Source: Spirochaetia bacterium
GTDB taxonomy: Bacteria; Spirochaetota; Spirochaetia; SZUA-6; Bin103
Assembly (NCBI GenBank): GCA_965203055.1
Contig: OZ241863.1
Span: 3,840,001-3,904,000 of the forward strand
DNA: 64,000 bases
Reading direction: 5' to 3'
The notes under the pieces are model-generated. The model ran no database searches. It had not been told where the DNA came from and was given only the letters and a program-made list of their open reading frames with translations. Both the position numbers and the translations under genes were made by a program. Below, one piece after another: positions 4,139 through 25,287 of this stretch (its first letter is position 1; each line of letters starts with the position of its first letter).

Positions 4139-4510
4139 CTACCGGCTCGCTGCGGGCGGTTCCGGGACCGGCGGCGGCGGGCCGATCTCGAGCCTGGTCT
4201 CGATGCGCACCAAGCGGGTGTCGATGGCGTGAACGTCGGCGCGCAGGGACTCCACGTCGGCGCTGATCTCGGCACGCAACGCGGCAACATCGGTCTTGAC
4301 CTCAGTGCGCAACGCGGCAACATCGGTCTTGACCTCGGCGCGCAACGCGCGAACATCGGCGCGCACATCCCGTATGTCAGCGCTCAGTACGAGCACGGCT
4401 ACCAGGATGGTCAGCACGATTACCACGAACTGAACGGCGGCTTGCCAGTCGATCAGGTTCCGGGCAGCGACCGCCGGTCTCCGGGTGGGCGTGGCGTCCG
4501 CAGCGCTCAT
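4139..4510 (-). CDS. small membrane-anchored coiled-coil protein
   Basis: TM segment FVVIVLTILVAVLVL followed by DVAALRT/AEVKT repeats; 33-bp DNA repeat at 4275 and 4308. Confidence 0.7.
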   Translation of the reverse strand: MSAADATPTRRPAVAARNLIDWQAAVQFVVIVLTILVAVLVLSADIRDVRADVRALRAEVKTDVAALRTEVKTDVAALRAEISADVESLRADVHAIDTRLVRIETRLEIGPPPPVPEPPAASR

Positions 4511-4662
4511 GCCGGCCAAGCTACCACAAGGATCGTGCCCGCGCATAGTCGGCGGTGATCTGACGGATTCTGAGGGCGCACTTCCTGAACGCGTCAGGCG
4601 GCCCAGTGGAGTCCTCGTGCGCGCCCCGCCGGCTGGCGTACCGCGTCAGCGGTCAGGTCAGG

Positions 4663-5361
4663 TTAGAGACGTTCGGGAACTTCCAGGTAGCGTACCCCGG
4701 CGGCAGCGGCGCGTTCCCGGTCGGCGGCATCGAGCCGATAACCGGCGACCAAGGCCACGGCCTCCTCGCCGAACACCGCGGCAAGCGTTTCCGCGCTGTT
4801 GCGGCTGCGGACGACGTCGTCGGCATCGAGCCGATTGGCAACCTCGACCGCGACCCAGACCGGCGCGCGTTCCCGCCGCCGCCGCCCGCGCAGAATGATG
4901 TCGGTAGCGATGATCCGGTGCTCTTGCGCCTCGCTGATACGACCCTCGTCGGCGGCCGCGGCGACCCGATCGGCAAAATCTTCAGGGCACTGGTGCACGG
5001 CGCTCTGGATGATGCGGACGCGCCGCAACTCCAGGAGCTGACTCAGCAGCGGCTGAATCCTGCGGTGCACCTTCATCTCCAGGTCCGACCCCTTCAGGTA
5101 TCCGACGTCGTTCTTGAGGCCCGCCACGTCGGTCTTGAGGCCCGCTACGTCCTTCTTGAGCTCGGCAATATCTTTCTCGATGCGGTCCAGCCGCGCCGGC
5201 ATGCCGAGAAACTCGTTGGTGAGCAGGGCGCGCAGCAACATTCGTTGCGCCTCGGGGTTGGCCTGCAGCTCGGCGATGATGCGCGCCACCAGCGACTCCG
5301 GGTTCAACTGTGATTCCGGGTTCAACTGTTCAGCCTGTTCAACCGCCACGGGTGATCCCAC
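4663..5361 (-). CDS. coiled-coil protein with degenerate PD-(D/E)XK-like C-terminal domain, copy 1
   Basis: Heptads DIAELKK/DVAGLKT then TDIILRG...VAVEVA; near-identical to the neighbouring gene. Confidence 0.75.
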   Translation of the reverse strand: MGSPVAVEQAEQLNPESQLNPESLVARIIAELQANPEAQRMLLRALLTNEFLGMPARLDRIEKDIAELKKDVAGLKTDVAGLKNDVGYLKGSDLEMKVHRRIQPLLSQLLELRRVRIIQSAVHQCPEDFADRVAAAADEGRISEAQEHRIIATDIILRGRRRRERAPVWVAVEVANRLDADDVVRSRNSAETLAAVFGEEAVALVAGYRLDAADRERAAAAGVRYLEVPERL

Positions 5362-5482
5362 GTCCCGATCGAACCTACACGGCGGGCGCGGCTCCGATCA
5401 AGCCTCCAGTCCCCTCCTCCCCTTCGGCCCAGTGGATGGTCCTCGTGCGCGCCACCGCCGGCTGGCGTACCGCGTTAGCGTG

Positions 5483-6205
5483 CTAGAGCCGTTCGGGAAC
5501 TTCCAGGTAGCGTACCCCGGCGGCAGCGGCGCGTTCCCGGTCGGCGGCATCGAGCCGATACCCGGCGACCAAGGGCACGGCCTCCTCGCCGAACACGGCC
5601 GCAAGCGTATCCGCGCTGTTGCGGCTGCGGACGATGTCGTCGGCATCGATCCGATTGGCTACCTCGACCGCGACCCTGACCGGCGTGCGTTCCCGCCGCC
5701 GCCGCCCGCGCAGAATGATGTCGGTAGCGATGATCCGGTGCTCTTGCGCCTCGCTGATACGGCCCTCGTCGGCGGCCGCGGCGACCAGATCGGCAAAGTC
5801 CTCAGGACACTGGTGCACGGCGCTCTGGATGATGCGGACGCGCCGCAACTCCAGGAGCTGACTCAGCAGCGGCTGAATCCTGCGGTGCACTTTCATCTCC
5901 AGGTCCGACCCCTTCAGGTATCCGACGTCGGTCTTGAGGCCCGCCACGTCCTTCGTGAGGCCCGCTACGTCGGTCTTGAGCTCTGCCACGTCCTTCTTGA
6001 GGCCCGCCACGTCGATCTTGAGCTCGGCAATGTCTTTCTCGATGCGGTCCAGCCGCGCCGGCATGCCGAGAAACTCGTTGGTGAGCAGGGCGCGCAGCAA
6101 CATCCGTTGCGCCTCGGGGTTAGCCTGCAGCTCGGCAATGATGCGCGCCACCAGCGATTCCGGGTTCAACTGTCCAGCCTGCTCAACCGCCGCGTATGGT
6201 CCCAC
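5483..6205 (-). CDS. coiled-coil protein with degenerate PD-(D/E)XK-like C-terminal domain, copy 2
   Basis: Paralog of 4663-5361 with two extra heptads. Confidence 0.75.
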   Translation of the reverse strand: MGPYAAVEQAGQLNPESLVARIIAELQANPEAQRMLLRALLTNEFLGMPARLDRIEKDIAELKIDVAGLKKDVAELKTDVAGLTKDVAGLKTDVGYLKGSDLEMKVHRRIQPLLSQLLELRRVRIIQSAVHQCPEDFADLVAAAADEGRISEAQEHRIIATDIILRGRRRRERTPVRVAVEVANRIDADDIVRSRNSADTLAAVFGEEAVPLVAGYRLDAADRERAAAAGVRYLEVPERL

Positions 6206-7515: not shown

Positions 7516-7576
7516 CGACGGACCGCTAACGGCCCAACCTGACCCGCCGGCCGCGGCTCGGCTGCCGGCATCACGC

Positions 7577-9070
7577 TTACTCCTCGTCCGCGATCCGCAC
7601 CTGCAGCGTCCTGCCTTCCAGCGTCCGGCGCGCCCAGTAGAGGTTCTGGAACTGATCGTTGCCGGGCTCCGTCCACTCCGCGATGGCGGTTGCTCCGGTG
7701 CCGCTGCCGCCGGTAATGGTGATGGTGGGGCGCATCGGGTAGCCGCTCCCCCGGTTCGTGATCGTCACCTCGCCGAGCACGGCTATCAATGCGGAGGTGG
7801 CGGATGCCGCTTGACCGAACTCTTGTGAGAAGATAACGGTCGGGGCGGTCGTGTAGCCGTACCCCGGGTCCGTGACCGTCACCGAATCGACGGCGCCGGA
7901 CAGCACCGCGGTGGCCGTCGCCCCGCTGCCGCCGCCGCCCGTAAAGCTGACGGTCGGCACCGTCGTGTAGCCGCTCCCATTGCCCGTCACTGCCACGGAA
8001 GATATGCCGCTCTGCAGCGTCGCGGTGGCGGTGGCGGCCGTGGAGGGACCGCCGCCGCTAAAGGATACGGTCGGGGCCGACGTGTAGCCGCTCCCCGCGT
8101 TCGTCATCGTCACGCCCGTGACGGTACCCGTCAGGCTGAGCACCGCGGTACCGGTCGCCACGTTGGTACCGCTGGCCGGGTTCCCGAAGGTAACGGTGGG
8201 GGAGCTGTTGTAGCCGCTCCCATTGTTCGTCATCGTCACGGACGCGACGCCGGTTTGCAGGAACGCGGTGGCGACCGCCCCGGTGCCCGGCCCCCCAAAG
8301 GCAACGGTCGGGGCCGACGTGTAGCCGCTCCCCGGGTTCGTGATATCCACGTCATAGACTTCGCTCTTCAACGCTGCGGTGGCGGTGGGCATGGCGCCGC
8401 CGGACGGCGGCGCCGAAAAGCTGACGGTCGGAGCGACGCGTGACGCGTAGGTTTGAGCTCCGTCGTACGTGACCGTCACGGACCCGACGCCCATGGACGC
8501 CGCCGCGGTGGCGGTGGCCCTGACGCCGCCGGACGGCGGCGCCGAAAAGCTGACGGTCGGAGCGCTCGTGTAGCCGCTCCCCCGGCTCGTGACCGTGACC
8601 CGGCTGACGAATCCGCCCTCGTCCGACTGGTCCGGGGCCGTGAGCACCAGCACCACCTCGCCCTCCCGGACTTCCGCTTCGACCTTCCACTCCGCGCCGG
8701 AGAGATCGTCCGCGAAGACCGGCCGGTAACTGACGTTCTCGAGCGGCAGGTCCTGCCCGTCGATCGATACGCGCACCTTGCCGGCGGCGATCCGGTCCCA
8801 GGCGTACGGCGCGGAACGGTTGGTGGTCTGGATAAACACGTCCGCCTCGTCGCCAAAGTGAGCCACGCTGATCGGCCAGCTCTTCATCGTCTCCTGCGGC
8901 GTCGGCGTCGTCGGCTCATCGCCGCCGGTCCCGCCGCCGCCCGACCCCGGCATTGCCGGCGTCGTCGTTCCCGGCGTAGTACCGGGCCGCGCCGTCTGCG
9001 TGCACGCCACCAGCATGGCGATGCCGGCGGCCGCCGCGAGCGCTACCATCATCGTCGTCCTACTACTCAT
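7577..9070 (-). CDS. lipoprotein with eight ~40-aa VTVTNxGSGYTSAPTV beta-repeats
   Basis: Signal peptide and lipobox MLVAC; GGAG upstream of ATG 9070; exact 41-bp DNA repeat at 8395-8435 and 8524-8564. Confidence 0.8.
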   Translation of the reverse strand: MSSRTTMMVALAAAAGIAMLVACTQTARPGTTPGTTTPAMPGSGGGGTGGDEPTTPTPQETMKSWPISVAHFGDEADVFIQTTNRSAPYAWDRIAAGKVRVSIDGQDLPLENVSYRPVFADDLSGAEWKVEAEVREGEVVLVLTAPDQSDEGGFVSRVTVTSRGSGYTSAPTVSFSAPPSGGVRATATAAASMGVGSVTVTYDGAQTYASRVAPTVSFSAPPSGGAMPTATAALKSEVYDVDITNPGSGYTSAPTVAFGGPGTGAVATAFLQTGVASVTMTNNGSGYNSSPTVTFGNPASGTNVATGTAVLSLTGTVTGVTMTNAGSGYTSAPTVSFSGGGPSTAATATATLQSGISSVAVTGNGSGYTTVPTVSFTGGGGSGATATAVLSGAVDSVTVTDPGYGYTTAPTVIFSQEFGQAASATSALIAVLGEVTITNRGSGYPMRPTITITGGSGTGATAIAEWTEPGNDQFQNLYWARRTLEGRTLQVRIADEE

Positions 9071-9225
9071 CAAGATTCTCTCCTGCGCCGATCGACACCG
9101 TGTAACGCGCCGAACCCTGTCCCGAGTCCGGTGCCGAGTGCCGGGTGCCGGCGTCCAATCGGACCGGATTGTAGCACGAGTCCGGCCCACTTCCGAAACG
9201 CCGCGCCGGCGCGCGCGGCGCGCGC

Positions 9226-10152
9226 TCACGCCTGCTCCGGGTCGATGCCGGCCCGGCGCAGCATCGCCTCCAGCCGGTCAGCGCGGCGCCGTTCCTGCTC
9301 GGCGCGGCCGCGTTCCTGGTCAGCGCGGCGCCGTTCCTGCTCGGCGCGCCCGCGTTCCTGCTCGGCCGCTTCCTTGCCGGTGGGGATCAACTCGCCGCGC
9401 GCGTCCGTCCAGCGCAGCCACCGGCTCCGCACGCCCTCGAACTCCCCTTCCCACAGCGTCATTCCCAGCCCCAGCTCCGGGAACCAGGGCCGATCCTGGC
9501 GCTCGTATCCCCCGCCGCTCAACCGGTAGACGCGCAGGTCATCGCTCATCACCCGATGCAACAGGTCCTGGATTACGTAGTAGCCCACCCCCATCTCGGC
9601 GTAGCGCAACCGCTTCCCGCCGATCTCGCCCCCCTTCTGGTTCGACACGATCTCCACCACCAGGTCCGGCACCTTGCCGAACTCCCACACGAAGTAGGAG
9701 CGGTGCCTCTTGTCCCACCAGTTCGGGTTCACCTGCACGTCCAGACTCAGGAACACGTCCGGCACGATCGCCGGATTGCGCGGTTCGGGGAACACGCCCA
9801 CGTTGGCAGCGGTCAGAAACGGGCGCCCGCCGCCCGGGCCGGCCCAGGAAGTGTACAGCGGCTCGGTGAGCAGGCGTTGCTGCTTCTCGGAGGGCATGTT
9901 GTCCACCGGCGTATCATCCTCGGTGACCAGAGATTCGATGTCGAAGCCGGGCGCCGGCGCGGCAGGCGCCGCGGCGCCCGGCGCGGCCCGGGCCGGGGCG
10001 GCCGGCGGCGCGCCGGCCAGCGGCCGCGCGGGCCGGTGCCGCGGAGACCGGGCGGGACCCGTCACCAAGTCCGCCGCCGGCCGCGCCGCGGCGGGCTTGG
10101 CGGCGTGCGCGTCAGGCGCGGAACGACCGGCCGGGAACGTCGGCGAGTCCAT
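9226..10152 (-). CDS. Uma2-family (DUF820) endonuclease with C-terminal AEQER repeats
   Basis: TEDDTPVDN..SEKQQRLL, PDVFLS, PDLVVEIVS; ATG 10152 preceded by TATACT. Confidence 0.88.
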   Translation of the reverse strand: MDSPTFPAGRSAPDAHAAKPAAARPAADLVTGPARSPRHRPARPLAGAPPAAPARAAPGAAAPAAPAPGFDIESLVTEDDTPVDNMPSEKQQRLLTEPLYTSWAGPGGGRPFLTAANVGVFPEPRNPAIVPDVFLSLDVQVNPNWWDKRHRSYFVWEFGKVPDLVVEIVSNQKGGEIGGKRLRYAEMGVGYYVIQDLLHRVMSDDLRVYRLSGGGYERQDRPWFPELGLGMTLWEGEFEGVRSRWLRWTDARGELIPTGKEAAEQERGRAEQERRRADQERGRAEQERRRADRLEAMLRRAGIDPEQA

Positions 10153-15630: not shown

Positions 15631-16458
15631 ATGGTGAAGCTTCACGATCAACACCTGCACTCGCGCCATTCGGTCGACTCCAAGGCGGATCCGGCGGCCA
15701 ACTGCGAACAGGCCATCGCCGCCGGTCTGGCGGGCCTCACGTTCACCGAGCACTACGACATGCATCCGAGCGAACGCGACCAGTGCCAATGGGACTACGA
15801 CGCCATCGCCGCCACCGTGGCGGCGCTGCGGCGGCGCTACTCGCCGCCGCTCGCCATCGGCTTCGGCATCGAGGTGGACTACCAGCCGGCGCTGGTCGAG
15901 GAGACCCTGGACTACCTCGACCGGCACCGCTTCGACGCGGTCCTGCTCAGCGTTCACTGGTGCGGCGGCCGCCCCCTGCACCTGCGCCGGCGCTGGCAAC
16001 GGCTCGACGCCGCCGCCATGCGCCGCGACTACCTGGCGACGCTGCGCGAGGCGGCCGAGCTGTGCCGCGAGCTGGCCGCCGCCGGGCACTGCCCGTTCGA
16101 CATCCTCAGCCACCTCGATTACGTCAAGCGCTACCTGCTCAGCTACTGGGGCGCGCCGTTGGGGGCGGTGGAGCCGGCGCTGCTGGACCCGATCCTGGAA
16201 GCGATCATCGCCGCCGGCGTGGTGCCCGAGATCAACACCGCCGGACTGCGGCGCCCGGAAGCCGCGGCCTACCCCGACTGGCCGCTCCTGCGGCGCTACC
16301 GCGAACTGGGCGGGCGCGAGGTGAGCATCGGCAGCGACGCCCACCGCAGCCGCGAGGTCGGGCACGGGTTCGGCGCCATGGCAGCGCGGCTGCAGGCCAT
16401 CGGCTTCGCCGGCGAGACGGTGTTCCGGGAACGCCGGCGGCGGCTCATCTCCTGGTGA
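15631..16458 (+). CDS. PHP-family histidinol-phosphatase-like protein
   Basis: DQHLHS, FTEH, SVH, HLDY, EINT, GSDAH. Confidence 0.85.
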   Translation: MVKLHDQHLHSRHSVDSKADPAANCEQAIAAGLAGLTFTEHYDMHPSERDQCQWDYDAIAATVAALRRRYSPPLAIGFGIEVDYQPALVEETLDYLDRHRFDAVLLSVHWCGGRPLHLRRRWQRLDAAAMRRDYLATLREAAELCRELAAAGHCPFDILSHLDYVKRYLLSYWGAPLGAVEPALLDPILEAIIAAGVVPEINTAGLRRPEAAAYPDWPLLRRYRELGGREVSIGSDAHRSREVGHGFGAMAARLQAIGFAGETVFRERRRRLISW

Positions 16459-16460
16459 GG

Positions 16461-16480
16461 GGGCGGCGTTCCGGCCGCCC
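16461..16480 (+). terminator. GC hairpin after the PHP gene (no U-tract)
   Basis: GGGCGGC-gttccg-GCCGCCC directly after the stop codon. Confidence 0.35.
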
Positions 16481-16529
16481 GCGCTGCCCACGGAAATACC
16501 TGATAACTCAATCCCCGCGGCGCCAGGGC

Positions 16530-16558
16530 TTGACCAGTGGCCGGCAGTATCATAGCAT
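16530..16558 (+). promoter_or_regulatory. putative sigma70 promoter of the RiPP locus
   Basis: TTGACC-17 bp-TAGCAT. Confidence 0.55.
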
Positions 16559-16630
16559 CTGGCATAGTTGAGCAGCGCGCCGCGGATCGTGCCATGAGCG
16601 ATGCTGCGCGAGCTGCCGAAGGAGAGGATC

Positions 16631-16903
16631 ATGGGCGAGAAGACGATGACCGTCAGTGCTCTGCGCCAGCAACTGATCGACAAGGCGACCGAGGACAACG
16701 AGTTCCGCAGCCAATTGATAGCGGACCCCAAGGCCGCGATCGAGGCCGAGATCGGCATGACCGTGCCCGCCGAATTCAACATCGAGGTGCACGAGGAGAC
16801 GGCGACGACCAGTCACCTGATCCTGCCGCCCTCCGCCGAGCTCGGGGAAGCTGATCTGGTGCAGGTCGCCGGCGGCTTTTCCTGGGACAACGTGGGCTGG
16901 TAG
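16631..16903 (+). CDS. NHLP-leader RiPP precursor, core FSWDNVGW
   Basis: RBS GGAGAGG; leader KATEDNEFRSQLIADPKAAIE...VHEET...LILPP..ELGEADLVQVAGG (double-Gly), then an 8-aa core. Confidence 0.92.
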   Translation: MGEKTMTVSALRQQLIDKATEDNEFRSQLIADPKAAIEAEIGMTVPAEFNIEVHEETATTSHLILPPSAELGEADLVQVAGGFSWDNVGW

Positions 16904-16949
16904 CTGCGGTTCTGCCGACCTGCCGGTCTCCTGAATTGAGCGGGAGCGC

Positions 16950-18077
16950 ATGAGCACCGGAGACGACCGCTCGACCGGCGCCGCGCGCGCCTCCTTTGCG
17001 TCGATCCTCGAGCGCTGCCGTTCCCTGTTCCCGCCCGCGCTGCTCGACGCCGCGGGCTGGGAGCGAATCATCCGCGCGGCGAAGCCGCTGCCGCGCGCCA
17101 TTGCCGACACCCACTTCGGCTTCGAGTTCCATCTCGCGGAGCCGAACGCGGACGCTGACTTGGTGGTGCTCGCGATTCCGGGATCGGAGGTGGCGCGGCA
17201 CTACGTCAGCGCGGGGAAGCGCGCCGCGCCCGGGTCGGCGGCGGCGGCGCTCGCAAGCGGACTTGAGCGGCAGGCGGCGGATCCCAACTCCTACCTTGCC
17301 CGAGGAGTGCGCGCCATGATGCTGGAGTACGATATGACGGGACTGGCGCCGCACCGGCCGGTGCCGCCGCCGGGCGTCTTCTTTTCGCCGAGCAAATCCG
17401 CCCCCGGCTCCCGGGGCGGCGTCCCCGAGCACGGAGACGCTGCCGCCCTGCTCGAAGCGCTCGCCGTTACCGCCGGCTGGAACAGCCACCGGGAGATGGT
17501 GCCCACGGTCGAGCGCATCGTCGCGGCGCTGCCGGAGGCGGCGTACGTGTTCCAGGCGGGAGCCCACCCGGCGCGCTCCCCGAAGGGGTTCCGCATTCTC
17601 CTCTGGGACGTCGCGCCACAGGAAGTCCCCGCCCTGCTGCAACGGTTGGAGTGGCCCGGATCGACCGCCGCGGCGGCGGCCGTGCTCGCCGCCATGGACG
17701 ACCTGATCACCTACGTCGCCGTCGGCCTGGAAGTCACCGCGCAGGGGATCGGGCCGCGCCTCGGCCTGGAGCTGTACCGGCCGGTGAGGTGGTTCGACGC
17801 CGATGCCAGAGGGTGGCATCCCTTCATCGACCGGGTCGCGGAGCAAGGCTGGTGCATGCCCGAAAAAGCGGCCGGGCTGCGGTGCTGGCCGGGCGTCGAA
17901 CGGATGCTTGGGGACGGCAAGTTGTACATCGTCCGCCAGGGCATCAGCTACTTCAAGGTCGTGGTCGAACGAGGCGCGCCAATCGCGGCGAAGGCATATA
18001 CCGGCATGTCCGTGCTGCCGTACCGGCACCGCCCCGCCGAGAGTCCCATTCCTCCCCCGGACGCAGCGCGGCCCTGA
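16950..18077 (+). CDS. putative RiPP-modifying enzyme, ABBA/PT-barrel prenyltransferase-like
   Basis: GGAG RBS; 46 nt after the precursor; motifs FGFE, LEYD, FQAG, GPRLGLELY, SYFK, KAY. Confidence 0.6.
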   Translation: MSTGDDRSTGAARASFASILERCRSLFPPALLDAAGWERIIRAAKPLPRAIADTHFGFEFHLAEPNADADLVVLAIPGSEVARHYVSAGKRAAPGSAAAALASGLERQAADPNSYLARGVRAMMLEYDMTGLAPHRPVPPPGVFFSPSKSAPGSRGGVPEHGDAAALLEALAVTAGWNSHREMVPTVERIVAALPEAAYVFQAGAHPARSPKGFRILLWDVAPQEVPALLQRLEWPGSTAAAAAVLAAMDDLITYVAVGLEVTAQGIGPRLGLELYRPVRWFDADARGWHPFIDRVAEQGWCMPEKAAGLRCWPGVERMLGDGKLYIVRQGISYFKVVVERGAPIAAKAYTGMSVLPYRHRPAESPIPPPDAARP

Positions 18078-18159
18078 AACGATCCCCGATCCTCCCGCTT
18101 CACCAGTTCGCGCCCCGGCCTGACCGGCCGGACCCGGCTTGACCCGGCCTGCCGGCAGA

Positions 18160-18188
18160 TTGCCGCAACGCCCGGAATGGCCTACACT
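18160..18188 (+). promoter_or_regulatory. putative sigma70 promoter
   Basis: TTGCCG-17 bp-TACACT, then AAGGAG RBS and ATG 18213. Confidence 0.6.
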
Positions 18189-18212
18189 GTGGGCACTCAA
18201 GGAGCAACCAGA

Positions 18213-20558
18213 ATGAGCGATACCATGACCGCCAAGCCGGACTACCGCTGGATCGGCAAACGTCCGATCCGGCACGACGGCGTCGACAAGGTGACCGGCC
18301 GCGCCCAGTACGGCGCCGACTTCTCCCTGCCGGGCATGCTGTACGGCAAGGCGCTGCGCAGCACCTGCGCCCACGCCCGGATCAAGTCGATCGACACCCG
18401 CGCGGCGCGCGCCCTCGACGGGGTCAAGGACGTAATCACCGCGGCCGACTTTCCCGAAGTCAGCGCCGAAGGCCAGATCGACAGCGAGGCGCCGGCCAGC
18501 ATCAAGGATACGGCGCACAACGTGATCGCCCGCGGCAAGGTGCGCTACCACGGCCATACCGTGGCGGCGGTCGCAGCCGTCAGCCCGGCAATTGCCGACG
18601 CGGCCCTCAAGTTGATCGAGGTGGAGTACGAGCCGCTGCCGGTGGTGCTGGACGTGATGGAGGCGAGCGCCGCGGACGCGCCGTTGATCGACGAGTCGCT
18701 GCGCACCAACGGCGAGGCCGGCGCCGCCCCGTCCAACGTCGCCTCGCGCAACGTCTTCGAGGGCGGCGACCTGGACCGGGGCTTCGCCGCCGCGGAGGTG
18801 GTCTTCGAGCGCGAATTCGACAGCGCCACCGTCCATCAGGGCTATATCGAGACCCACGCCTGCATGGCGCGCGCCACCGAGAGCGGCGAGATCACCCTGT
18901 GGGTATCCAGCCAGGGTCACTTCTCGATCCGCGACAGCGCCGCCCAGGTGCTGGCGATCGAACCCTCCCTGATCCGGGCGATTCCGGCCGAGATCGGCGG
19001 CGGCTTCGGCGGCAAGACCACGGTCTACCTGGAGCCGCTCGCGATTCTGATGGCGCAGCGTACCGGGCATCCGGTGAAGATGGTGATGTCGCGCGACGAG
19101 GTGTTCCGCGGCACCGGCCCGGCGCCCGGCAGCCACACCCGCATCCGGATGGGCGCCACCCGCGACGGGCGCATCACCGCGGTGGACTGCGAGCTGTGGT
19201 TCGAGGCGGGCGGCTTCCCCGGCTCCGCGGTGGGGGCCGCCATGATGGCGCTGATCGCCCCCTACGAGGTGGCCAACTTCCGCATCGTCGGCTACGACGT
19301 GCTGGTCAACAAGCCCAAGTCGCACGCCTACCGCGCGCCCGGCGCGCCCAACGCCGCCCACGCCAGCGAGTGCGTGATCGACGAGATCTGCGAGGAGATC
19401 AAGATGGATCCTCTGCAGTTCCGCCTCAAGAACGCGGCCCGCAAGGGCACCAAGGCGCCCTACGGTCCGGTGTTCCCGGAGATCGGCATGGTGGAGACGG
19501 TGCAGGCGGCGCTGGATCATCCCCACTACCGGACGCCGCTGGGACCCAACCAGGGCCGCGGCGTGGCCTCCGGCTTCTGGATGAACGGCGGCGGCGACGC
19601 CACCGCCCATATCTCCGTCCTGCCGGACGGCAAGGTGACGCTGGTGACCGGGCGGCCTGACATCGGCGGCTCGCGCGCCGGCCACGCCATGGTACTGGCC
19701 GAGGAGCTGGGCATCGACGTGGACGACGTGCGGCCCTCGATCGGCGACACCGACGCCGTCGGCTTGAACGGCGTCACCGGCGGCAGCAGCACCGCCTACG
19801 CGGCCGCGGTAGCGGTGCACGAAGCCGCCGGCAAGCTGATCGCCGACGCCTGCCGCCGCGCCGCGGAGATCTGGGACGCGCAGCCGGCCGACGTCGAGTG
19901 GCGCGACGGCGCCGCCCATCTCAAGGCGGGGGTCAACGGCACCGAGGCGCCGCTCACGCTCAAGGAGCTGGCTTCCCGGGCGTCGCAGACCGGCGGACCG
20001 CTGGCCGCGGACGCGGCGGTCAACGCCAAGGGCGCCGCGCCCGCGCTCGGCACCCACATCTGCGACGTGGAGGTGGACCCCGAGACCGGCAAGGTGGACG
20101 TGGTCCGCTACACCGTGGTGCAGGACGCCGGACGGGCGATCCACAAGAGCTACGTGGAGGGCCAGATGCAGGGCGGCGCGGTGCAGGGCATCGGCTGGGC
20201 GCTCAACGAGGAGTACCTGTTCGACGAGGACGGGGTGATGGAGAACGCCGGCTTCCTGGACTACCGCATGCCGGTGGCGCTGGATCTGCCGATGATCGAC
20301 ACGGTGATCGTCGAAGTACCCAACCCGCGCCACCCCTACGGCGTGCGCGGCGTGGGCGAAAACGCCATCGTGCAGCCGCTGGCGGCGATTGCCAACGCCA
20401 TCTACGACGCCGCCGGCGTGCGCCTGTACCACGTGCCGATGTCACCTCCGAAGGTGCTCGCGGCGGTGCGGGAGGCGCAGGCCAAGCGGCGCGTCCCCGC
20501 CGGCAATGGCGCCGCGGCGCCCGCGCCGCGGGAACCGGAGCCGGTCGCCGCACGCTGA
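18213..20558 (+). CDS. xanthine dehydrogenase/CoxL-family molybdopterin-binding large subunit
   Basis: KVTGRAQY, IGGGFGGK, AYRAPG, EVDPETG, EGQMQGG, RGVGE. Confidence 0.92.
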   Translation: MSDTMTAKPDYRWIGKRPIRHDGVDKVTGRAQYGADFSLPGMLYGKALRSTCAHARIKSIDTRAARALDGVKDVITAADFPEVSAEGQIDSEAPASIKDTAHNVIARGKVRYHGHTVAAVAAVSPAIADAALKLIEVEYEPLPVVLDVMEASAADAPLIDESLRTNGEAGAAPSNVASRNVFEGGDLDRGFAAAEVVFEREFDSATVHQGYIETHACMARATESGEITLWVSSQGHFSIRDSAAQVLAIEPSLIRAIPAEIGGGFGGKTTVYLEPLAILMAQRTGHPVKMVMSRDEVFRGTGPAPGSHTRIRMGATRDGRITAVDCELWFEAGGFPGSAVGAAMMALIAPYEVANFRIVGYDVLVNKPKSHAYRAPGAPNAAHASECVIDEICEEIKMDPLQFRLKNAARKGTKAPYGPVFPEIGMVETVQAALDHPHYRTPLGPNQGRGVASGFWMNGGGDATAHISVLPDGKVTLVTGRPDIGGSRAGHAMVLAEELGIDVDDVRPSIGDTDAVGLNGVTGGSSTAYAAAVAVHEAAGKLIADACRRAAEIWDAQPADVEWRDGAAHLKAGVNGTEAPLTLKELASRASQTGGPLAADAAVNAKGAAPALGTHICDVEVDPETGKVDVVRYTVVQDAGRAIHKSYVEGQMQGGAVQGIGWALNEEYLFDEDGVMENAGFLDYRMPVALDLPMIDTVIVEVPNPRHPYGVRGVGENAIVQPLAAIANAIYDAAGVRLYHVPMSPPKVLAAVREAQAKRRVPAGNGAAAPAPREPEPVAAR

Positions 20559-23482: not shown

Positions 23483-24033
23483 GGGCACGCCCTCAACAAC
23501 ATCGGATTCGTAGTGAGCACCTCGATCCCTCCGGTAGTGAAGTCGGCGTCATTCGTCACCAGCTTCCATCCATTGCGACGGCACGTATCAGCTAACAGAC
23601 CATCGTTCAAGTCGCTCGCCCCGGCCTCAAAGCCTGCCAATACCTGCGCTATGTTCGTCTGTGCAAAGGGATGATCTACGCGCCGGCTCAACTTCAGTAT
23701 CTTTCGCGCGGCCGACGCCGCCTTTCTACCTGGCACAACGAAGTCCGATGACTTGCGGAAGTCCTTGAAGTCAGGGTATCTCCCCCTATGGAGGGCGTTC
23801 CACACGATACGACAATAGCGGTTCAGATACTCGCTGAGCACCAACACGTCGACAATCAGCTCCACTCCCGCGTACCGCATCGACTTCAGTCCTCGGCTGT
23901 ACGTCGCCGCGTGTCGATAGACTACTCCGATCGGTGTAGGAAACAAGTAGAGCCAAACATTGGCGTCGAACAGTAACGACTCTCCTTTACGGAACGAATA
24001 GTTGGACAGATGGTAAGCCTTATTCGTCATCAT
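23479..24033 (-). CDS. PIN-domain (VapC-like) nuclease
   Basis: FDANVW, LSEY, DLND, TNDADF acidic tetrad; start about 24030-24033, overlapping the STAS stop. Confidence 0.85.
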   Translation of the reverse strand: MMTNKAYHLSNYSFRKGESLLFDANVWLYLFPTPIGVVYRHAATYSRGLKSMRYAGVELIVDVLVLSEYLNRYCRIVWNALHRGRYPDFKDFRKSSDFVVPGRKAASAARKILKLSRRVDHPFAQTNIAQVLAGFEAGASDLNDGLLADTCRRNGWKLVTNDADFTTGGIEVLTTNPMLLRACP

Positions 24034-24391
24034 CTTCTTCATCATTTCCCAATTCTTCACGCCACGCCCTATCGAACTCTTTGGGATTTTTGAAGTAGAC
24101 TTTCGCATTGTCGATTACATGCTGCCAAATCTCTGCATCGTCGGCGAGCAAGTGGGTCGCAGTAAGCAGGTCGTCGACATGTTCGTCTGGTAATTCACCG
24201 TATAGCTGGCCGACAGCTGCGTTGAGAAATGCGGAGATTATCGTCTCTACCCGATCGAAAGAAAGAACTACTGGCGTACCTGCCTGCAAGAGCGGCGCAA
24301 TCTTGTCATGTAAACGCTGCCCGTCGTCGGTCGAAACACAAAGCGAACCGCCGACAATGTCGAACACTCGAACGGTAATAGGTTGAATCAT
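24020..24391 (-). CDS. STAS-like (DUF4325-type) protein
   Basis: DDGQRLHDKI..VVLSFDRVETIISAFLNAAVGQLY; RBS GGAGGAG. Confidence 0.85.
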   Translation of the reverse strand: MIQPITVRVFDIVGGSLCVSTDDGQRLHDKIAPLLQAGTPVVLSFDRVETIISAFLNAAVGQLYGELPDEHVDDLLTATHLLADDAEIWQHVIDNAKVYFKNPKEFDRAWREELGNDEEDDDE

Positions 24392-25287
24392 GGCTCCTCC
24401 GAAGAAGAAATTTCCTTCCGCAGAAGGTAAATATTTGTATCAGCGGTGTTGACCTCAACGGTTACTGCAGTCCCGGGGAAGTCCGACGTCATTCTCAGAA
24501 AAACCTCGTTGCCACCGTCATATTCATGAAACGCAAATCGAGATACGATCCGAATCTTTCCCTGATTCTTGGTAGCGAACTGGCGAATGAATTCAAGACC
24601 GAGACCCCCGGGATGATTACCACGCTTCGTAGTATGGCTTTTCCTTACCGCCCATTTCAGTGCGGCAACGGAGCTGATCCTATTGACTAGCTCACGGTTC
24701 TCATCAGTCCACAGAATCTTGAAATAGCGACGAACCGCATCACGGATACCGATGCCGCCATCGGCGATGGTGAAATCCAGACGATCTCGAGAAAGGGTCT
24801 GTCCGCAGACAAAAATGCCGATTAATGACTCAGAATGGGTGACTGCATTATGATATACTTCGAATAGATTCTTCTTGAACATCCTTCTCGCCATATCAGA
24901 CAAGCTGGGAAACGCTTCCCTTGCAAACAGACGGTGAACATATTCTTCCAAAGCTCGCCTGTCAGAAAGTCGAAAACGGCAATGGGGAATGGTAGTACTC
25001 TGTACATCATCGATTGGTTCATACCGAAAGTGAGTGAGAAACTGGTTTTCCCTTAGTATCTGTTCTACGTCTGCAGGTACAGATACAATCTTGACAGAGT
25101 TGAACTTGTCGGTTACGCGAGCAAGAACCACGCCAAGAGGAGCGGCCATGTTGGCGTCGAACGAGCTCACTCGCGACATGTCCAGTTCGAGTTTGTCGGC
25201 ATAGAGATGCCTGGTCGCTTTCGCAAGTTGGCCGAGGCATTCGAATCCCGCGCGATTGCTACGCACGCTGCGCAGTTGGTAGATCAA
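24388..25287 (-). CDS. GHKL/HATPase ATP-binding protein with STAS-like N-terminus
   Basis: EVYHNAVTHS (N), IADGGIGI (G1), GGLGL (G2), FPGT (G3); probable TTG start overlapping the rbsK stop. Confidence 0.8.
   Translation of the reverse strand: MIYQLRSVRSNRAGFECLGQLAKATRHLYADKLELDMSRVSSFDANMAAPLGVVLARVTDKFNSVKIVSVPADVEQILRENQFLTHFRYEPIDDVQSTTIPHCRFRLSDRRALEEYVHRLFAREAFPSLSDMARRMFKKNLFEVYHNAVTHSESLIGIFVCGQTLSRDRLDFTIADGGIGIRDAVRRYFKILWTDENRELVNRISSVAALKWAVRKSHTTKRGNHPGGLGLEFIRQFATKNQGKIRIVSRFAFHEYDGGNEVFLRMTSDFPGTAVTVEVNTADTNIYLLRKEISSSEEP

Follow-up and report, generated by a model that had tools for sequence, protein, structure and literature searches.

What does a 375-residue protein that matches no named family do when its gene lies directly behind that of a ribosomal peptide precursor? 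The question is raised by a two-gene unit on the plus strand of a 64,000-nucleotide stretch (hereafter the window; contig OZ241863.1, positions 3,840,001 to 3,904,000) from a Spirochaetia bacterium whose genome is one contig of 4,557,819 bases. The unit consists of a precursor gene of the nitrile hydratase-like leader peptide (NHLP) type, followed by a gene for a barrel protein (16950..18077). A first-pass annotation, made from the letters of the window, had described the second gene as an orphan prenyltransferase-like enzyme of the ABBA-barrel class and had guessed that it modifies tryptophan in the precursor's short core. The precursor-enzyme pair most likely makes a short lipidated peptide, and structure prediction and comparison suggest that the enzyme is probably a leader-guided peptide tryptophan prenyltransferase acting on the third residue of the core (Trp3).

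We used AlphaFold2 to model the 375-residue protein from 43 sequences and assigned strands with DSSP. The model (predicted local distance difference test, pLDDT, 89.6; predicted template modelling score, pTM, 0.87) has five strand pairs separated by helix pairs, predicting a ten-stranded antiparallel barrel. Ten strand segments had been guessed beforehand from the sequence, and all ten fall inside DSSP strands of the model: FGFEFHL (residues 56-62), ADLVVL (69-74), MMLEYD (123-128), GVFF (142-145), YVFQAG (199-204), GFRILL (213-218), YVAVGLEV (255-262), RLGLELY (270-276), SYFKVVV (333-339) and AKAY (347-350). A Foldseek search of the PDB gave 77 matches at E ≤ 0.001; among those listed, all are prenyltransferases, the best being IptA (7w8u, E 2.2e-6, template modelling score 0.50). 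On VIA re-alignment MpnD (4yla) reached Z 18.0 with a root mean square deviation of 4.0 Å over 293 residues, and the best 50 entries were all aromatic prenyltransferases. The proposed PT-barrel fold was also borne out by a comparison independent of Foldseek: among 48,161 representative chains, 19 reached Z ≥ 8 and 19 of 19 were ABBA prenyltransferases, the first chain of any other kind being a designed beta-barrel at Z 6.0.

The same comparison separates the branches of the superfamily. DMATS-type enzymes score Z 15.3-18.0, a group comprising EpzP, AmbP1, Orf2 and CloQ scores 13.7-14.8, and the cyanobactin F-type proteins PatF, PagF and DciF score 11.9, 11.6 and 10.9, respectively. It follows from the Z ranking over these chains that the modelled fold is a PT-barrel nearer to the indole prenyltransferases than to the cyanobactin F-family; the likeness to DMATS enzymes that had been suggested from the sequence stands, and the companion likeness to the F-family is the more distant one (Z 10.9-11.9). 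Structural matches cover residues 7-357, which leaves a single barrel with no extra domain, and a Pfam scan recognised no domain resembling a RiPP recognition element (RiPP, a peptide made by the ribosome and modified after translation), residues 7-357 being occupied by the barrel fold. The all-helical isoprenoid synthase fold of the ComQ/PalQ type was not seen, as the model is a beta-barrel with flanking helices. In language-model features, which serve as a lead only, the closest clusters that bear a name, behind the unnamed ones to which the protein itself belongs, are Trp_DMAT (0.90) and PTase_Orf2 (0.88).

The protein is not an orphan in the sense first proposed. An exhaustive search of representatives clustered at 50% identity found 1474 relatives at E ≤ 0.001, of which 574 lie at E ≤ 1e-10 and 90 at E ≤ 1e-30; a word-indexed search gave 178 relatives at E ≤ 0.001 among 8000 candidates, and none of the 120 listed among those 178 carries a Pfam domain or a name. 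Taken with the predicted fold, this is most likely a new sequence family of ABBA enzymes. Three residues, E59, K336 and Y350, do not vary among 87 diverse representatives reaching down to 23% identity, and D70, E126, D128, R209, R215, K306, H334 and K348 are conserved in at least 90%; R270 is invariant as well in a closer set of homologues. Conserved residues alternate along the model strands (126/128, 270/272/274/276, 334/336 and 348/350), a periodicity that would place them on one face of the barrel with their side chains pointing inward.

The association with NHLP precursors extends well beyond the window. A pattern scan with one genome per species yielded 40 loci with enzyme relatives at 28-85% identity, all in metagenome-assembled genomes (MAGs) labelled Spirochaetia, Binatia, Vicinamibacterales, Gamma- or Alphaproteobacteria, Dehalococcoidia, Chloroflexota, SAR202 or simply 'bacterium'. 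A hidden Markov model built from ten leaders of the host genome matches open reading frames (ORFs) in 40 of these 40 loci, so the expected linkage of homologues to NHLP precursors held throughout; for the more distant relatives it rests on loci L044-L052. A same-strand NHLP gene lies 5' of the enzyme gene in 33 of the 40 loci, within 400 nt in 31. Counted by gene, 54 enzyme genes have 700 nt or more of sequence on their 5' side, and a same-strand NHLP ORF ends no more than 500 nt upstream in 43 of them, or in 42 once a wrong-frame artefact in L019 is dropped. Loci with no NHLP gene upstream have NHLP genes downstream or on the opposite strand, and many loci are tandem arrays in which two or three enzyme paralogues each have their own precursor ahead of them. 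From the upstream counts and the tandem arrays, therefore, the conserved unit is a precursor-enzyme cassette, of which the window holds one bare copy.

The precursor itself had been read as a 90-residue NHLP peptide with the core FSWDNVGW, and this proved correct: TIGR03793 (leader_NHLP) matches residues 10-82 along model positions 4-77 of 77 with 73.1 bits, above the cut-off of 50.9 (E 1.2e-20). The leader (residues 1-82; 16631..16876) has the C-terminal end ...ELGEADLVQVAGG, and the leader-core junction reads ...LVQVAGG/FSWDNVGW, a Gly-Gly type cleavage motif followed by a short variable core. The core and its stop codon occupy 16877..16903 (core 16877-16900, stop 16901-16903); the core is eight residues long and Cys-free, with Trp3 (precursor residue 85) encoded at 16883-16885 and a C-terminal Trp (residue 90) at 16898-16900. 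The leader aligns with those of 31 cognate precursors from other genomes, and the Gly-Gly junction lines up across all 32. Within the core, a Trp aligned with Trp3 of the window is present in 31 of the 32; the sole exception is a core ending in Tyr-Tyr, whose paired enzyme is 31% identical to that of the window. The residue after the aligned Trp is Asp in 22 of the 31. Both tryptophans of the proposed di-Trp core are thus there, and the conserved one is Trp3, not the C-terminal Trp, which is kept only in the nearest orthologues (IDWGEVGWR, WSWDEVGWR and VDWDNIGWR).

Enzyme and core also sort together. In a quick maximum-likelihood tree, for which a careful search is unfinished, the window enzyme falls in a four-row clade (Shimodaira-Hasegawa-like approximate likelihood ratio test 100%) with the enzymes of the IDWGEVGWR, WSWDEVGWR and VDWDNIGWR cores, and other enzyme clades of the same tree pair with other core classes (...TFWDD..., VDVNWDT..., Trp-ended and Tyr-Tyr-ended). 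A core that varies freely except for one aromatic residue, together with the tracking of clades and core classes, fits an enzyme that would modify that residue.

To evaluate recruitment by the leader we co-folded enzyme and precursor. The pair scored 0.56 against 0.01 for the best control, with runs sharing at least 67% of contacts and a partner pLDDT of at least 78. The co-fold mark is reached by 116 of 157 solved complexes and by 2 of 215 mismatched pairs, and passes at 0.60 or under comprise 18 of the 157 solved complexes and both passing mismatches. Leader recruitment, as it had been proposed, thus draws weak support from co-folding and otherwise leans on synteny.

The host genome contains further potential substrates. 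It has 12 NHLP matches, 11 of them above the family cut-off, and the search for paralogous precursors that had been recommended turned up five further intact, unlinked precursors with the window's leader type. These five are 78-85% identical to the window precursor in the leader, and the six form one leader class in which core position 3 is always Trp (FSWD, MGWS, IDWS three times and INWS); the junction of the INWS copy reads ...AAGAG. A seventh copy of this class is degenerate, and the remaining host precursors belong to a second leader class that is closer to the precursor of an enzyme paralogue described below. The five intact unlinked genes and the degenerate one lie at L055:7710-8612, L056:6752-7093, L057:6628-7298 and L059:4947-5336. 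Several unlinked precursors adjoin genes for a YhgA-like transposase (PF04754) or a restriction-modification methylase, as if mobile.

Cleavage and export had been postulated to be supplied in trans. The genome has a single C39 match (C1:956639-957022), part of a 697-residue peptidase-ABC (ATP-binding cassette) protein encoded at C1:954875-956968, next to a 1000-residue ABC protein and an NHLP gene (locus L053:5566-10968 = G000:C1:951566-956968), and this single C39 protein elsewhere in the genome is therefore a concrete candidate for both steps. The NHLP gene at this locus has the core AGQHAGDAPQTFWDDQPK, ending ...TFWDDQPK. The first ~450 residues of the 1000-residue ABC protein have no Pfam match, and an ISL3 transposase fragment is nearby.

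A second cassette is present in the same genome (L054:5931-11428 = G000:C1:1719931-1725428). Here an NHLP gene (L054:7643-8014, plus strand; core ...SFWDDYGG...) is directly followed by an enzyme paralogue 57% identical to that of the window (L054:8028-9164, plus strand). Upstream on the opposite strand is the genome's only JmjC_2 oxygenase gene (L054:5931-7247), and downstream on the minus strand are two more NHLP genes, one of them broken by an in-frame TAG. A gene for a YhgA-like transposase follows the NHLP genes of this cassette. Also in favour of prenylation, the host genome has two polyprenyl synthase genes.

These findings can be assembled into a tentative sequence of events. The enzyme would dock on the NHLP leader and bind an isoprenoid diphosphate inside the barrel, putatively through R209, R215, R270, K336, K348 and Y350. 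In DMATS-type structures a ring of Arg, Lys and Tyr residues holds the diphosphate and a Glu engages the indole. By analogy, the indole of core Trp3 would be alkylated with the invariant E59 as the candidate base. Cleavage behind Gly-Gly and export of the short prenylated peptide would finally fall to the only C39 peptidase-ABC exporter of the genome, whose gene lies elsewhere. The window enzyme probably also serves the five scattered intact precursors that share its leader type and a Trp at core position 3.

Several observations weigh against assigning the enzyme to peptide tryptophan prenylation. Neither Pfam nor NCBIfam matches the 375-residue protein at E ≤ 1; Trp_DMAT (PF11991) and PTase_Orf2 (PF11468) match neither the window protein nor any of the 87 diverse family members; and the matches from profile searches against PDB sequences were all at chance level. 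The conserved basic and Tyr residues, among them R209, R215 and K348 on or between strands, are predicted to line the barrel lumen from strand periodicity and not from coordinates. Co-fold passes in this score band are wrong more often than they are right, except where the pairing was probable in advance. The nearest orthologues keep the C-terminal ...VGW(R) as well, which makes a second or different modification site possible, and the window locus has no isoprenoid-donor gene. With the L019 artefact dropped, 12 of the 54 enzyme genes have no NHLP gene directly upstream. Finally, PatF, a barrel protein of the superfamily, is among the structural matches (Z 11.9), so that the fold alone is no proof of function. 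As to the sequence searches themselves, the 87 family members gave only scattered Pfam matches to unrelated families (E ≥ 0.008), and PDB-sequence profile matches to YchJ (E 0.16) and to a Nif regulator (E 0.048) were discarded as chance level; PF11991 was not found in 301 genomes of the phylum, this one included, in a search left unvalidated by control genomes that were equally silent.

Genes that accompany the cassettes elsewhere bear on the chemistry. We scanned 113 neighbour ORFs of the related loci for domains. A JmjC_2/Cupin_8 oxygenase occurs near cassettes in 13 of the 40 loci. Five loci with the VDVNWDT core (L044-L048) are labelled Dehalococcoidia or Chloroflexota, and in four of the five a gene for an oxidase with FAD_binding_4 and cytokinin-dehydrogenase-like domains lies directly 3' of the barrel enzyme gene (L044:5096-6562, L046:5114-6580, L047:5043-6563 and L048:5110-6552), the corresponding ORF of the fifth locus lying outside the scan. 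Cytokinin dehydrogenases act on isopentenyl side chains, and by analogy such an oxidase might process a prenyl group further. Genes for HlyD and C39 transporters come next in the distant loci L044-L046, L048 and L051; L050 and L052 carry P450 genes, L047 and L049 encode hybrid histidine kinases, and L048 encodes a response regulator. Partner genes of these kinds confirm a RiPP setting. They are missing from the window-type clade (L013, L014, L023 and L024), as they are from the window itself. No terpene cyclase, cyanobactin protease or conserved small-molecule pathway gene was recognised among the neighbours scanned.

The likeliest of the alternatives is that the barrel enzyme modifies the NHLP precursor in another way, by using another electrophile or another nucleophile (the Asp or Ser beside the Trp, or the C-terminus), or by performing the first step of a cyclisation such as pyrroloindoline formation or a Trp3-Trp8 link. 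The chemistry of a sequence-orphan family is unconstrained, Asp follows the conserved Trp in 22 of 31 precursors, and a second Trp is kept in the ...VGW(R) of the nearest orthologues; the JmjC oxygenase of 13 loci, which also stands beside the second cassette of the host, and the FAD (flavin adenine dinucleotide) oxidase of four Chloroflexota loci point to additional chemistry on these peptides. We nevertheless regard this as unlikely, since the solved proteins at Z ≥ 8 are all prenyltransferases or their relatives, the family conserves a single core residue, an aromatic one (Tyr in its most distant clade and otherwise Trp), which is the usual acceptor in this superfamily, and the window locus has no partner enzyme.

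A non-catalytic role, in which the protein would bind the NHLP peptide as a partner or chaperone or confer immunity to it, is improbable. PatF, reportedly an inactive prenyltransferase homologue of a cyanobactin pathway, offers a precedent among the structural matches (Z 11.9), the locus has no gene that would supply a donor, and the co-fold hints at binding and is silent on catalysis. Against this, the invariance of E59, K336 and Y350 and the near-invariance of R209, R215 and K348 in the 87 representatives would be difficult to account for if the protein had no catalytic or ligand site, and enzyme paralogues diversify along with core classes, as a site-specific modifier would. It is highly improbable that the protein prenylates aromatic small molecules, for example free Trp or an indole metabolite, and has NHLP neighbours by chance or shared regulation: its best structural matches (MpnD, 6-DMATS, CymD and FgaPT2) are indeed small-molecule indole prenyltransferases, but NHLP genes adjoin the enzyme gene in 40 of 40 loci from MAGs with labels of at least six bacterial groups and in repeated cassettes, no other small-molecule pathway gene is conserved beside it, and in the paired precursors a single Trp persists amid an otherwise variable core.

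Given peptide tryptophan prenylation as the preferred reading, the fate of the product can be considered. It is conceivable, though we think it quite unlikely, that the cassettes make prenyl-Trp peptides like ComX that act as diffusible signals, not toxins. The grounds for this are that the cores vary but keep one Trp, that near-identical cassette types occur in MAGs labelled Spirochaetia, Binatia and Vicinamibacterales, apparently after horizontal transfer between unrelated bacteria associated with sponges, and that the enzyme paralogues probably each read their own leader class and serve a small scattered library of precursors. On this proposal the hybrid histidine kinases of L047 and L049 and the response regulator of L048 could be the receptors. 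If true, it would amount to a lipopeptide signalling system common to several phyla in one host habitat.

The gene structure of the unit agrees with the first reading of the window. A sigma-70-like promoter candidate (TTGACC-17 nt-TAGCAT, plus strand) is present as claimed at 16530..16558, with its boxes at 16530-16535 and 16553-16558; the site is a consensus match, and the consensus scan found one promoter-type site in 16300-18400 against a mean of 0.1 over 50 shuffles. The longest form of the precursor ORF spans 16601..16903 (plus strand). We rejected the in-frame ATG at 16601 and favour the start at ATG 16631, which gives the 90-residue product ending at 16903, because a ribosome-binding site (AGGAG, 16620..16624, plus strand) precedes ATG 16631 by 6 nt. 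The enzyme gene was likewise confirmed, beginning at ATG 16950, 46 nt past the precursor stop, and running to 18077; a GGGAG ribosome-binding site (16942..16946, plus strand) lies 3 nt ahead of this ATG, and the MSTG... start position is common to enzyme homologues. Terminator-like hairpins at 17358-17378 fall inside the enzyme gene and were judged to be chance. Third-position GC is 0.88 in the precursor gene and 0.87 in the enzyme gene, compared with 0.69 for the genome. Long minus-strand ORFs cross the locus (for example 16776..20432, 1218 residues) and were rejected as high-GC artefacts because homologues exist for the plus-strand genes, whose third-position GC is also high.

Around the unit we called 18 flanking ORFs between 3359 and 33320, using our own filter on third-position GC, and scanned them for domains. 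They encode proteins of sugar and central metabolism, PtsP, a PHP-domain protein, a molybdopterin oxidoreductase, Fic and a tRNA ligase. The first-pass annotation had remarked on the lack of other modifying enzymes, and this holds for the 18 ORFs scanned: LanM, YcaO, radical-SAM enzymes, halogenases and C39 proteins are all missing from them (the uncalled intervals, about 7516-9228 and 23489-25286, were outside the scan). The LanC-like domain PF05147 had 0 matches in the host genome, with controls equally silent, so that its absence is not shown. Elsewhere in the window, three consecutive minus-strand ORFs at 4142-6205 (135, 232 and 240 residues) have coding-like third-position GC and no Pfam match at E ≤ 1e-5. 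A plus-strand ORF of 1146 residues at 26305-29742 matches a class-III aminotransferase in its last ~400 residues only; its first ~740 residues may be an over-long ORF call in GC-rich DNA.

Two further observations concern individual loci. Two MAGs labelled Vicinamibacterales have, next after the enzyme gene, a gene for a protein of 244-255 residues (L032:5100-5831 and L035:5193-5957) with an N-terminal NHLP-like leader, a C-terminal domain of ~170 residues that was not recognised, and no short core. The cassettes at L038:3672-3953 and L039:3720-3953 look decaying: one precursor reads ...ESDRDALC... where its sisters read ...ESDWDALC..., with Arg for the conserved Trp, and in the other a part of the leader-core junction is gone.

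Among 301 searched genomes of the phylum, the host included, 4 contain the enzyme family. The window clade unites MAGs labelled as three phyla at 76-85% enzyme identity, and because of this span the cassette appears to have spread horizontally among phyla, as the sequences suggest, although the MAG labels may be wrong. The window stretch was found in sequencing runs recorded as sponge metagenome (X2-X5 and X14), as marine metagenome and under coded organisms, with index shares of 0.31-0.70; no RNA run was listed for it. If the proposed activity is true, the cassette would be a very small module for peptide lipidation, consisting of one precursor and one soluble enzyme with no prior cyclisation, and could provide a genetically encoded tool to lipidate a chosen Trp of a linear peptide. 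A large unnamed family (1474 representatives; no Pfam match in the 120 listed relatives or the 87 scanned) would thereby gain a function, and uncultured bacteria would have a further class of NHLP peptides that are short, prenylated and Cys-free.

How does this compare with known prenyltransferases? The nearest structural relatives, the DMATS-type enzymes MpnD, 6-DMATS, CymD, PriB, IptA, TleC and FgaPT2, align over 282-312 residues within model residues 6-363 (Z 15.3-18.0), and the bacterial members, at ~340-375 residues, are similar in size to the window enzyme. They act on free Trp, diketopiperazines and indolactams, not on ribosomal peptides, and their aligned identity to the window enzyme is 6-12%, in keeping with the silence of PF11991. 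The cyanobactin enzymes PagF, PatF and DciF share the ABBA fold and have ribosomal peptides as substrates, with aromatic residues among the acceptors, and are structurally further away (Z 10.9-11.9). As outlined in PMC12715784, F-type enzymes are leader-independent and act after leader removal and macrocyclisation.

Three systems come closer in concept. MppC, from the mpp cluster of Moorena producens, is described in PMC12715784 as a leader-dependent Trp C5-geranyltransferase for a lanthipeptide, which loses activity without the leader and refuses free L-Trp. The window pair resembles it in placing a soluble barrel enzyme beside a precursor with a long structured leader, a Gly-Gly type junction and a core Trp, and MppC has one specific core Trp as acceptor, as is predicted here. 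MppC works with a Nif11 leader and a core that has been pre-cyclised by LanM, according to the same text, whereas the window precursor has an NHLP leader and a Cys-free core, and no LanM is encoded in the 18 flanking ORFs. The host here is, unlike that of MppC, a non-cyanobacterial bacterium, and its DNA is present in sponge metagenome runs.

NctPC (Hubrich et al., Chem 2024) is summarised in a review (PMC13290415) as a prenyltransferase-cyclase fusion that places a C20 geranylgeranyl group on Trp and has a barrel fold with low sequence similarity to cyanobactin enzymes. On that summary, the barrel fold and the Trp acceptor, predicted here, are shared, and the difference lies in architecture: NctPC is fused to a terpene-cyclase domain, whereas the window protein is a single barrel. 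The window family is set apart from MppC and NctPC by description and not by sequence comparison.

The third system, PalQ/PalX of Paenibacillus alvei, is reported in PMC10853753 to combine an NHLP-type precursor, with the eight-residue core DNVRRFFW, and an adjacent Trp prenyltransferase in a minimal cluster whose mature peptide resembles a ComX-type pheromone. An NHLP precursor, an eight-residue core ending in Trp and a minimal cluster are features common to both. PalQ, like ComQ, belongs to the all-helical isoprene-synthase superfamily and acts on the C-terminal Trp in that account; here the enzyme is a predicted beta-barrel and the conserved Trp is internal, at core position 3. The palX and palQ genes are there accompanied by a histidine kinase gene, and the window locus is without one.

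We found no published account of an NHLP-linked ABBA prenyltransferase in the full-text literature, a coverage from which subscription journals are mostly absent; a 2025 review of sponge peptides contains 'prenyl' 0 times, and in a 2026 review on the prenylation of peptides the words 'NHLP', 'leader' and 'sponge' each occur 0 times. Since MppC, NctPC and PalQ were described in 2023-2025, the concept is unsurprising to a specialist: leader-dependent barrel prenyltransferases on Nif11 lanthipeptides (MppC and NctPC) and an NHLP-linked Trp prenyltransferase (PalQ) are already known. What is new here is the enzyme family, the linear Cys-free substrate, the cassette arrays and the habitat, together with the NHLP leader, the JmjC partner and the host.

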